From assembly GCA_043821645.1 (NCBI GenBank), contig JBDRCO010000087.1:224001-288000 (forward strand): a stretch of 64,000 bases of DNA, in the 5' to 3' direction. How positions within the stretch are numbered: the first letter of the stretch is position 1; every line of letters begins with the position of its first letter. Source of the DNA: Pseudomonadota bacterium. Its GTDB lineage: Bacteria; Myxococcota; JACRCW01; JAFGSX01. Both the position numbers and the translations under genes were made by a program. The notes below the pieces were generated by a model. The model searched no databases, was not told the origin of the DNA, and saw nothing but the letters and a program-made list of their open reading frames with translations. Of this stretch, positions 35 through 1,424 are shown one piece after another.

Positions 35-316
35 GTGGCAACCATCATCACCGAGGAATGCATCAACTGCGGCGCCTGCGAGACGGAGTGTCCAACCCAG
101 GCCATCGCCGAGAGCACCGAGATCTACCTGGTGGACTCGGCACTGTGTTGCGAGTGCGTCGGCTACTTCGACGAGCTGGCCTGCGCTGCGGTGTGCCCCG
201 TGGACTGCTGCGTGGTGGACACCAAGCACCCGGAGTCCAAGGAGCAGCTGCTGGCCAAGGCCCGTCAGGCGAGTCCAGAGCGCGAGTTTGGCCCGGACGC
301 TCCGTCGCACATCTGA
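35..316 (+). CDS. 2x[4Fe-4S] ferredoxin (YfhL-like)
   Basis: CINCGACETECP and CCECVGYFDELACAAVCPVDCC Cys motifs; GTG start after AGGGAG. Confidence 0.9.
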   Translation: MATIITEECINCGACETECPTQAIAESTEIYLVDSALCCECVGYFDELACAAVCPVDCCVVDTKHPESKEQLLAKARQASPEREFGPDAPSHI

Positions 317-610
317 GCTCGCTGCCGCCGCCAGGTCTTTCTCATCTCGCTGCCAGATTTGCTGTCAACATGGTGCCACTCCAAGCAAGCGACCCGAGGG
401 GCTGCTGCTGAGGGAAAACCGAGCTGATCGACAGGACAAAGAGACCACAGCGCGTGGCTAATTTGCCATAATCCTAATTATTTAATATAATTAGGTTAAT
501 TTTCTAGCGACAGATAGATATGGTTACTTTGCCCCGGCGGCCGCAAATCCGCAAAGATCCTGCAGAAGAATATATAATGATTTCAATTCTATCGGCTCTA
601 TTACCAATTC

Positions 611-626
611 TGGCACGTACCCTGCT
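611..626 (+). promoter_or_regulatory. sigma54 (-24/-12) promoter
   Basis: TGGCACG-TACC-CTGCT; GG-N10-GC spacing matches TGGCACG-N4-TTGCW; AT-rich upstream region. Confidence 0.8.
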
Positions 627-637
627 TAAGAAAGACC

Positions 638-789
638 CGTACACGGAAGCGCGGTTCAAACTGGACTACCCCCCCCGGTCCTACCGAACAAGCGACCCGT
701 GACAGGGTGCAAGTCACCTTGGAAGGCGTCGTCGCCAGTTTCCGGTGCTCCCCCCCCACCGGCCTGACGCGACGCCTTCCGCTTTTTTT
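638..789 (+). ncRNA. Putative sigma54-dependent small RNA, Pxr-like architecture
   Basis: Starts just downstream of the sigma54 motif; three stem-loops (about 642-701, 704-720, 721-780), two with C-run loops; ends in T7 at 783-789; no credible ORF. Confidence 0.7.
721..789 (+). terminator. Intrinsic terminator (last hairpin of the sRNA)
   Basis: Perfect 11-bp stem GGAAGGCGTCG/CGACGCCTTCC followed by GC and T7. Confidence 0.8.
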
Positions 790-818
790 GGGCTCAGTTT
801 CCTAGCAGCTTGGTTTTC

Positions 819-1424
819 TTATCCCGCATCGCCCGGACGCGGGCAGCGATGAGTCTGCAGATTGCAGGTTCGTCCCTCGCAGTGCGAGCTATCGAAGCAC
901 TCGACGCAGAGCAGCTGAGGTGAGCAGTAGGGCTGCGCCTCGGGGCAGTGGCCGCACAGCCCTGCATCCTCCGCCGCGCGATCGTCGCCGACGCTGCGAT
1001 CGGGCGGTACCGCCGCATCCATGTCCCTGTCCCCGGCCTCGTCGCAGGTCGGCAGGTCTGCCACCACGTGATCTGCACGCTGCGCGTCGCTCTGTGTCGC
1101 AGCGTCGGTAAGCTGGGTGTCCGGCGAAGAGCGGTCAGGTGACGAGCTGTCCACCCCGCTCGCGTGGTCCGTGCCTCCGTTGACATCGGGTCGCGCGGTA
1201 TCGGGGCGGGGCCCGTCCACGGTGCTGCTGTCCGGGAGCGAGACATCGGCCGCACGGGCGTCGCGGGTCAGACATAGACCCGTGGCGAGGTCGCAGCTGG
1301 AGTAGCCGGGGCAGTCCAGGTCGCTGCCACAGGCGTTGGCCGCCGGTGTTGCCGGACATCCGAGTTGGATCATGATGCCCCACGCGGCGAAGGGGAGGAT
1401 CCGACGAAGGTGCCATGGTGCCAC
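819..1424 (-). CDS. Cys-rich putative lipoprotein with Asp/Ala/Ser-rich linker
   Basis: GTG at 1424 with AGGAG upstream; lipobox-like QLGC; two Cys-rich modules (CGSDLDCPGYSSC..C; CGHC..C..CVEC..C..C..C). Confidence 0.65.
   Translation of the reverse strand: MAPWHLRRILPFAAWGIMIQLGCPATPAANACGSDLDCPGYSSCDLATGLCLTRDARAADVSLPDSSTVDGPRPDTARPDVNGGTDHASGVDSSSPDRSSPDTQLTDAATQSDAQRADHVVADLPTCDEAGDRDMDAAVPPDRSVGDDRAAEDAGLCGHCPEAQPYCSPQLLCVECFDSSHCEGRTCNLQTHRCPRPGDAG

Follow-up and report, generated by a model that had tools for sequence, protein, structure and literature searches.

Does the DNA between positions 611 and 789 of our window (the whole 64,000-nucleotide stretch of contig JBDRCO010000087.1 analysed here) encode a regulatory RNA and, if so, how does this RNA relate to Pxr, which is among the few bacterial small RNAs (sRNAs) linked to multicellular development? 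The window comes from contig C87 of a 7.07-Mb metagenome-assembled genome of the Myxococcota (G000; 67% GC, 94.7% complete). A preliminary description based on the letters of the window had proposed an unannotated, sigma-54 dependent sRNA with three hairpins and C-rich loops, which would be either a distant Pxr relative or a member of a new analogous family, and our evidence fits that either/or. Judged from sequence comparison, window 611-789 is a conserved sRNA gene, one of three in G000 (copy A, in the window, and copies B and C), and the family core consists of a promoter, one or two long hairpins with apical C-run loops (C-loops) of 7-9 cytosines and a terminator. The family is a new one of an already known type, the multi-copy regulatory RNA that has a C-rich seed and depends on sigma-54 and an activator. 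We consider it probable that copy A is a free-standing gene for a trans-acting RNA of ~150 nucleotides (nt) whose transcription depends on sigma-54 and an NtrC-type activator and whose C-runs pair with G-rich ribosome-binding regions.

Promoter, hairpins and terminator of the window copy

The features of copy A, with its stem-loops (SL) numbered from the 5' end, are as follows.

611 to 626, plus strand: sigma-54 type -24/-12 promoter, TGGCAC-GTACC-CTGCT, with GG at 612-613 and GC at 624-625
636 to 789, plus strand: predicted sRNA of ~150 nt, drawn from the fold and covariance-model matches; start inferred 11-13 nt past the -12 GC, end at the U-tract
639 to 703, plus strand: SL1, a long hairpin with apex GGACU (663-667), loop ACCCCCCCC (668-676) and GGUCC (677-681)
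704 to 720, plus strand: SL2, a short hairpin, AGGGUG-CAAGU-CACCUU, taken from the fold and unconserved in the family
721 to 789, plus strand: SL3, the second C-loop hairpin and intrinsic terminator, with apex CCGGUG, loop CUCCCCCCC (748-756), CACCGG and T7 (783-789)

Promoter, all three hairpins, C-loops, 11-bp stem and T7 thus lie base for base where the preliminary description had placed them. There are 8 and 7 consecutive C in the two loops, and SL3 proper covers 721-780, its 11-bp base stem pairing 721-731 with 770-780 and its C-run loop being flanked by GGAAGGCGUCG...CGACGCCUUCC. As in Rho-independent terminators, the hairpin at 721-780 is followed, after GC, by T7 (783-789), and all copies of the family have a T-run after their last hairpin. 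A simple terminator scan, which admits loops of 3-8 nt only, passed over SL3 with its loop of 9 nt. In the contig of the best-matching DNA run (X1) a strain variant, C782T, extends the T-run to 8 instead of 7. When folded by RNAfold, 636-790 (plus strand) forms exactly three hairpins with a minimum free energy of -64.1 kcal/mol (z -4.05), and 1 of 200 shuffled sequences folds as well. A reading of the locus as a peptide gene, a 22-codon frame from GTG at 698, was rejected in a by-eye check since the frame crosses SL2, an unconserved part.

Two results at the locus itself speak against an RNA gene. The promoter pattern matches once in the window against 0.27 expected, and shuffled windows have at least one match in 22 of 100 cases, which on its own is within chance. 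The minus strand folds stably too (z -3.03), so that the fold alone leaves the strand undecided, which is given instead by the promoter and the T-run. Therefore, the case for an RNA gene has to be made by comparison with other genomes, in which the unit is conserved and its stems covary.

Conservation and covariation in other genomes

The lineage is thinly sampled: G001 shares the family (f1) of G000 and is a sister genus, G002 and G003 share the class only, and both G001 and G003 are Myxococcota. In G001 a copy occupies the same place as copy A, where a ferredoxin-like gene and an AT-rich spacer precede it, with a promoter (TGGCAT-N5-ATGCA) at the aligned position, an unchanged GGACU..GGUCC stem in SL1, whose loop has nine C versus A plus eight C in copy A, and a T-run, its stems being altered in sequence yet still paired. 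A 19-mer forming the apex of SL3 (CGGUGCUCCCCCCCCACCG) is identical in copy A, G001 and L004, the one genuine member among four loci which a scan of metagenome contigs with this 19-mer returned. L004 sits at a contig end, which puts its upstream gene out of view; the other three matches (L003, L005, L006) lie inside GC-rich coding sequence and are due to chance.

A BLAST search of the unit against G000 gave the self-match only and missed the paralogs. These were found by R1, a covariance model which was built from the copy A, G001 and L004 sequences and includes the promoter, and which detects three mutually unlinked copies in G000 (179.6, 64.6 and 47.6 bits). Over 151 Myxococcota genomes, R1 has matches in 7 at E up to 0.1: G000, G001, G003 (five copies), three genomes of another Myxococcota family, f4, and G089, where the match falls inside a coding sequence and is attributed to chance. 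One-hairpin copies ~400 bp apart form a tandem trio in G003 (L018 1501-2406; G003:C497:37757-38662), each with its own CTGGCAC-N5-CTGCT promoter and upstream region. The second, promoter-less model (R2) finds copies in each of the four class genomes, that of G002 being new, and the number of copies per class genome is 1-5. With R2 the f4 RNAs, which are diverged versions, score 40.9-42.3 bits (E about 1e-8); they were missed in a large R2 scan which ran stricter filters. The copies added to copy A by the models in G000 and G002 are these.

G000:C68:33499-33668: copy B, 64.6 bits with R1, two C-loop hairpins
G000:C31:56680-56813: copy C, 47.6 bits with R1, one C9-loop hairpin and a small terminator
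G002:C83:9494-9634 (L061 1501-1641, minus strand): G002 copy, found by R2

The architecture of three hairpins put forward in the preliminary description hence holds for the window copy and not for the family: G001, L004 and the paralogs lack SL2, and because it is specific to the window copy we exclude it from the family core.

Base pairs were counted in A4, an alignment of 10 copies fitted to the model, since a MAFFT alignment of SL1 modules misregisters the lower stems. Even allowing that such fitting favours structure, 94.6% of the cells in A4 hold standard pairs and 25 of 43 pairs have changed on both sides, values which none of 500 shuffles reaches, and pairing falls to 34-49% when the 3' partner is slid by 1-3 columns. 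Compensatory changes affect 10 of the 14 pairs in the lower stem of SL1 and 14 of 18 in that of SL3. The SL1 apex and loop are invariant in 10/10 copies bar single changes; the apical helices GGACU/GGUCC and CGGUGC/GCACCG are fixed or vary in one cell, and the C-run loops likewise are essentially invariant. Folding and covariation, which the preliminary description had named as checks, thus bear it out, and the promoter, stems and C-loops, whose loss from relatives (together with a missing transcript) it would have taken as grounds for giving up the gene, are kept in them.

Promoter and upstream sites

Sigma-54 promoters have GG at -24 and GC at -12, and their activators usually bind 80-200 bp upstream. 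An RpoN DNA-binding domain (217.6 bits) shows that rpoN is present in G000. Of the 10 copies in genomes of the class, 9 have TGGCAY-N5-N[TC]GC ahead of the C-loop hairpin at a constant distance, and so does L004. A search with a motif that leaves the promoter out, GGACTNCCCCCCCCGGTCC, over one genome per prokaryote species gave 15 matches; six of these fall in G001 and G003, and each of the six is preceded at 45-52 nt by TGGCAY-N5-NYGC and followed by a T-run. The remaining nine (Streptomyces, Syntrophaceae, others) have neither and were set aside as chance matches. Among the loose-motif matches in G000, the promoter is present in 3/3.

Further upstream of copy A we find two candidate upstream activator sites (UAS) and an AT-rich motif, none with an assigned strand.

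454 to 469: UAS1, candidate distal activator site GTGGCTAATTTGCCAT, matching GTGGY-N6-RMCAY, 157 bp upstream of the T of TGGCAC
520 to 535: UAS2, candidate proximal activator site ATGGTTACTTTGCCCC, a loose match at -91
576 to 586: AT-rich motif AATGATTTCAA between the UAS and the promoter, a possible IHF-type DNA-bending site

In the three G000 copies GTGGY-N6-RMCAY recurs at -157, -155 and -154, and a looser form stands at -156 in G001. Copy C has a perfect palindrome, GTGGTGTATCCGCCAC, at -91, the same position as UAS2 of copy A, so that the paired sites of copies A (-157/-91) and C (-154/-91) are 63-66 bp apart. Allowing one mismatch, the AT-rich 11-mer occurs in 5 of 9 upstream regions versus at most 3-4 in 10 shuffles; by the IHF consensus, AATGATTTCAA may be an IHF-type site.

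Two side observations concern these regions. Upstream of the G002 copy there are other palindromes, GGGCAC-AA-GTGCCC, instead of GTGGY-N6-RCCAC, and its family (f2) may use a different upstream site. At 463-495 the window has a near-consensus sigma-70 type promoter (TTGCCA-17-TATAAT, 11/12), which overlaps the right half of UAS1 as well as a perfect 9-bp inverted repeat, CCTAATTAT-N5-ATAATTAGG (473-495), and copy B has TATAAT at the equivalent place after a GCCAT half-site. Such a box could give rise to a second, longer transcript, or it could point to an activator that also represses.

A candidate activator encoded elsewhere in the genome

The preliminary description had noted that no enhancer-binding system adjoins the gene, and indeed the nearest Sigma54_activat match on the window contig is ~74 kb away and no activator gene is found next to any of the three copies in G000. 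This applies to the locus; the genome, with its 45 Sigma54_activat matches, does hold a candidate. In family f4 the RNA gene is divergent to a gene for a response regulator with REC, Sigma54_activat and HTH_8 domains, and the spacer they share bears the same UAS motif, as a perfect palindrome in G061. The f4 activator has one clear ortholog in G000 (C3:73502-74893; 486 bits versus 343 for the next match), and reverse searches from the G000 protein score 739, 576, 563 and 536 bits in G001, G061, G003 and G015, with second matches at 368 or less. Upstream of the G000 gene there are two perfect GTGGY-N6-RCCAC palindromes, 64 bp apart, a spacing that matches that of the UAS pairs at the sRNA promoters; in the 7.07 Mb of G000 there are only 77 such palindromes. 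Because of the adjacency in f4, the clear orthology and the shared palindromes with matching spacing, we infer that the orphan response regulator encoded at C3:73502-74893 switches on the three sRNA genes and, in addition, binds to the promoter region of its own gene. Its gene has no histidine kinase gene beside it, the neighbours coding for a FAD-linked oxidase and a PMT_2-like protein.

Predicted mode of action and targets

In the mechanism which we favour, sigma-54 holoenzyme would be activated by a single NtrC-type response regulator, that of G000:C3:73502-74893, bound to paired GTGGY-N6-RCCAC-like sites which lie ~155 and ~91 bp ahead of the promoter and are separated from it by an AT-rich bend. 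The exposed C-runs of the RNA would then base-pair with mRNAs at G-rich ribosome-binding regions, thereby blocking translation in an Hfq-free manner, a mode of action which is established for actinobacterial 6C RNA and has been suggested for Pxr; Hfq was not found in G000 (94.7% complete, as above). One likely target would be the mRNA of the activator itself, where the SL3 loop would cover the Shine-Dalgarno (SD) sequence in a negative feedback like that of Qrr RNAs and LuxO.

The 5' region of the activator mRNA reads GGAAUGGGGGGAGCGUGC-AUG and includes the SD GGGGGGAG, to which the first 8 nt of the SL3 loop, CUCCCCCC, are perfectly complementary. With 4988 crudely called initiation regions ranked by their predicted duplex, that of the activator comes 8th for the SL3 loop and 162nd for the SL1 loop, its predicted duplex with the SL3 loop having -23.6 kcal/mol against a mean of -10.5 (sd 4.0). 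The activator ortholog of G001 has GGGGGG at the SD position.

A second sigma-54 activator gene, at G000:C5:37068 (plus strand), ranks 9/4988 for the SL3-loop duplex, with UGGGGGGUGAGCG-UUG; its Sigma54_activat domain is encoded at C5:37776-38276, and two activators are thus in the top ten. At G000:C31:83852, C32:576 and C111:33475, genes for apparent lipoproteins or secreted proteins have 8 consecutive G only 2-3 nt ahead of the ATG. Such runs possibly mark targets of the C-loops or, alternatively, an unusual type of ribosome-binding site in G000.

Alternative explanations

A number of results count against the interpretation preferred here. No transcript was seen for any family member: no RNA run matches window 300-1100, and two metatranscriptome runs from the same study as the best DNA match have nothing on 400-1000, which is uninformative either way. 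Besides the chance-level promoter, the minus-strand fold and the fitting of A4 dealt with above, the G002 copy has TGGCAT-N5-GTGTA, in which GT replaces the -12 GC. The UAS motif is absent upstream of the G002 copy and of G003_a and merely loose at the other G003 copies; against a background of 418 strict sites in G000 (0.0177 per 300 nt) its recurrence carries no formal probability, as the motif was defined after viewing the sequences. At the SD position, runs of six or more G (25/2270) are not clearly enriched over those of six or more C (14/2270), and GGGGGGGAG occurs there in 6/44 cases versus 5/44 for its complement. The G-run SD is not kept in the activator orthologs of G003, G015 and G061, so that the activator feedback, should it exist, may operate in family f1 only. 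The invariant apical stems, finally, could equally mean recognition by a protein.

The last point leads to a different role for the RNA, a decoy whose fixed apical stems and C-run loops would tie up an RNA-binding protein, for example one that binds poly(C), much as CsrB and RsmZ do for CsrA with their GGA loops. It would account for apical helices that stay fixed while the lower stems change freely, given that a loop alone suffices for seed pairing, and sits well with the varying numbers of hairpins per RNA (one or two) and of gene copies per genome as well as with the G-runs lacking clear enrichment at start codons. However, a candidate partner protein was not identified, and one or two sites per RNA are few for a sponge. 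Comparison with known RNAs also favours base pairing: the C-rich loops of 6C RNA bind mRNA directly, as stated in PMC6486639, and a C-to-A change at the fifth base of the Pxr SL1 loop abolishes function according to the account in PMC5684412, the targets of Pxr being still given as unknown in 2025 in PMC11928866. Moreover, the activator SD offers the SL3 loop a perfect 8-nt complement, and so a decoy strikes us as quite unlikely. A more radical objection is that there is no RNA gene here at all, SL3 being a mere terminator for its neighbours and the promoter-like motif and SL1 owing to chance or to a repeated DNA element. While the promoter matches in shuffled windows, the stable minus-strand fold and the lack of RNA evidence would all agree with that, the minus-strand hairpin is followed by AAGGUGAC rather than a U-tract, and the ferredoxin-like gene upstream ends at 316, ~400 nt ahead of SL3. 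The whole unit of promoter, hairpins and T-run, furthermore, is found again at unlinked loci and in other genera, its stems bearing compensatory changes and the promoter distance being fixed, and a genome has only three copies, which all share the same upstream site. Already disfavoured by these conservation data, the idea of a locus without an RNA gene appears to us very improbable.

Relationship to Pxr

If the window copy is a small RNA gene, as we hold, is it a Pxr? In Myxococcus, Pxr keeps fruiting bodies from developing during growth. With the Rfam model of Pxr (RF01812; gathering score 80 bits), which the preliminary description had proposed as a check, neither window 300-1000 nor 625-795 gives a match at E up to 10, and the genomes of the class give none either. 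Across the 151 genomes it detects 20 of the 21 in family f11 and nothing else, with no match in G000-G003 or in 18 f4 genomes. Within this sample Pxr as delimited by RF01812 is thus confined to f11, whereas the host of the present family belongs to an uncultured class outside f11; the RNA falls outside the Rfam Pxr family, and homology to Pxr is not established.

A true, distant homology would make Pxr, the f4-type RNAs and the present family branches of one old Myxococcota superfamily with a sigma-54 promoter and a UUC7 apical loop, which is compatible with the trans-acting, C-run pairing RNA we favour. The likenesses are manifold. The Pxr promoter, CTGGCAC/T-N5-CTGCTA, resembles the TGGCAC-N5-CTGCT of copy A, and the SL1 loop of Pxr, UUCCCCCCC, has its C7 run 44-45 nt past the -12 GC, compared with 36-43 nt here (43 nt for ACCCCCCCC of copy A). 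The loop contexts of the G003 copies (GGACUUCCCCCCCCGGUCC), the f4 copies (GGUUUCCCCCCCGCC) and Pxr (GGUUCCCCCCCACC) are alike. Both Pxr and the window copy, which belong to the same phylum, have a short SL2 and a terminator hairpin, and the Pxr SL2, GGUGAGUCACC, resembles that of copy A, although a similar string occurs by chance in a coding region of G000. Tandem pxr paralogs with a sigma-54 promoter each, which PMC5568312 reports for Cystobacter, find a counterpart in the G003 trio. A dedicated NtrC-type activator is common to Pxr and the f4 RNA, in f4 as an adjacent gene, and R1, a model with the promoter, can be aligned over the entire length of the pxr gene at 5 of 9 loci (E 4.8e-4 to 0.04).

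Set against these are the silence of RF01812 and the behaviour of promoter-less R2, which aligns in full length at 7 of 12 Pxr loci with no more than 8.9-11.6 bits (E 0.26-1.2) and is not significant. An nhmmer profile of Pxr gives nothing significant in G000: our locus comes second (E 0.48), only when the promoter is included, and the best match (on C65) lies in a coding region and was rejected. The conserved stem of the Pxr SL3 terminator (8-bp core; GAAGACCCGCGGCCCGG...CCGGGCCGCCUUCUUUU) is absent here and, conversely, SL3 of Pxr has no C-loop, whereas our terminator hairpin carries the second one. The pxr gene lies downstream of pxrR (nla19), which encodes an NtrC-like response regulator; our candidate activator is unlinked and is not a PxrR ortholog, PxrR having no clear ortholog in G000 (top three matches 311, 305 and 304 bits). 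Also, the UAS motif is absent upstream of 5/5 Pxr genes checked. We therefore think of an RNA that works like Pxr and lies outside the Pxr family as defined, for which shared ancestry is a tenable, if tentative, option.

Two diverged Pxr-like genes from 5-Mb genomes of f11 (L067 and L068, in G079 and G094) retain both the UUC7 loop and the terminator, but upstream a TTGTCA-type box takes the place of TGGCAY-N5-NYGC.

Other known systems and significance

Functionally, 6C RNA of Mycobacterium and other Actinobacteria comes close, its C-rich loops being direct mRNA-binding sites that appear to act independently of RNA chaperones, according to PMC6486639. Common to both are a high-GC host, C-rich hairpin loops and, for G000, no detectable Hfq; the phylum, the sigma-54 promoter and the multi-copy organisation set our family apart. 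Rfam 6C has no match at the locus at E up to 10, and we see in 6C a putative functional analog, homology not being suggested. A similar genetic layout is known from Qrr1-5 and LuxO of Vibrio, which likewise comprises several paralogous sRNA genes, each with a sigma-54 promoter, and one NtrC-type response regulator. Qrr action depends on Hfq. In sequence and structure the Qrr RNAs are unlike the present family, and their seed is a single-stranded 5' region rather than an apical C-run. They pair over the luxO ribosome-binding site, which results in feedback (PMC2632942), while here the same arrangement is predicted from the activator SD.

No Rfam family matches the locus (E up to 10), and the papers covered by our literature search include no sigma-54 driven C-loop sRNA in Myxococcota besides Pxr. 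No new principle is involved, as sigma-54 driven multi-copy sRNAs with C-rich seeds are already known. What the family adds is a defined sigma-54 regulon, with three promoters and common paired upstream sites, in a phylum with dozens of orphan enhancer-binding proteins, and, in the G-run ribosome-binding site of the activator gene, a candidate target open to experiment. That Myxococcota which branch deeply and are uncultured possess a multi-copy family of this kind, be it related or convergent, would also point to the C-run loop as the working part of such RNAs.

One may go further and see in all sigma-54 driven hairpins with UUC7-9 loops a single ancient RNA superfamily of the Myxococcota with Pxr as its best-known branch, in which the f4 layout is ancestral and the copies have dispersed yet are wired to their activator and repress it through the G-run ribosome-binding site of its mRNA. 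Taken as a whole, this scenario seems somewhat unlikely to us. Were it true, the ancestral RNA would have stood beside its own NtrC-type activator, as in f4, and its genes would have multiplied and dispersed, tied to the activator by paired GTGGY-N6-RCCAC sites, into a Qrr/LuxO-style dosage-compensating loop in non-fruiting, uncultured myxobacteria. Independently of this scenario, the family puts the date at which the regulator arose up for discussion again, Pxr being viewed as a recent invention within the Cystobacterineae in PMC5568312.

Neighbouring genes

The sRNA gene is flanked by the ferredoxin-like gene and by an open reading frame (ORF) for a Cys-rich product at 819-1505. Neither this ORF nor the one after copy B has a Pfam domain. 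No link was found between the sRNA and the neighbouring diguanylate cyclase, which the preliminary description had rightly placed nearby: the gene at 1559-2497 encodes REC and GGDEF domains.

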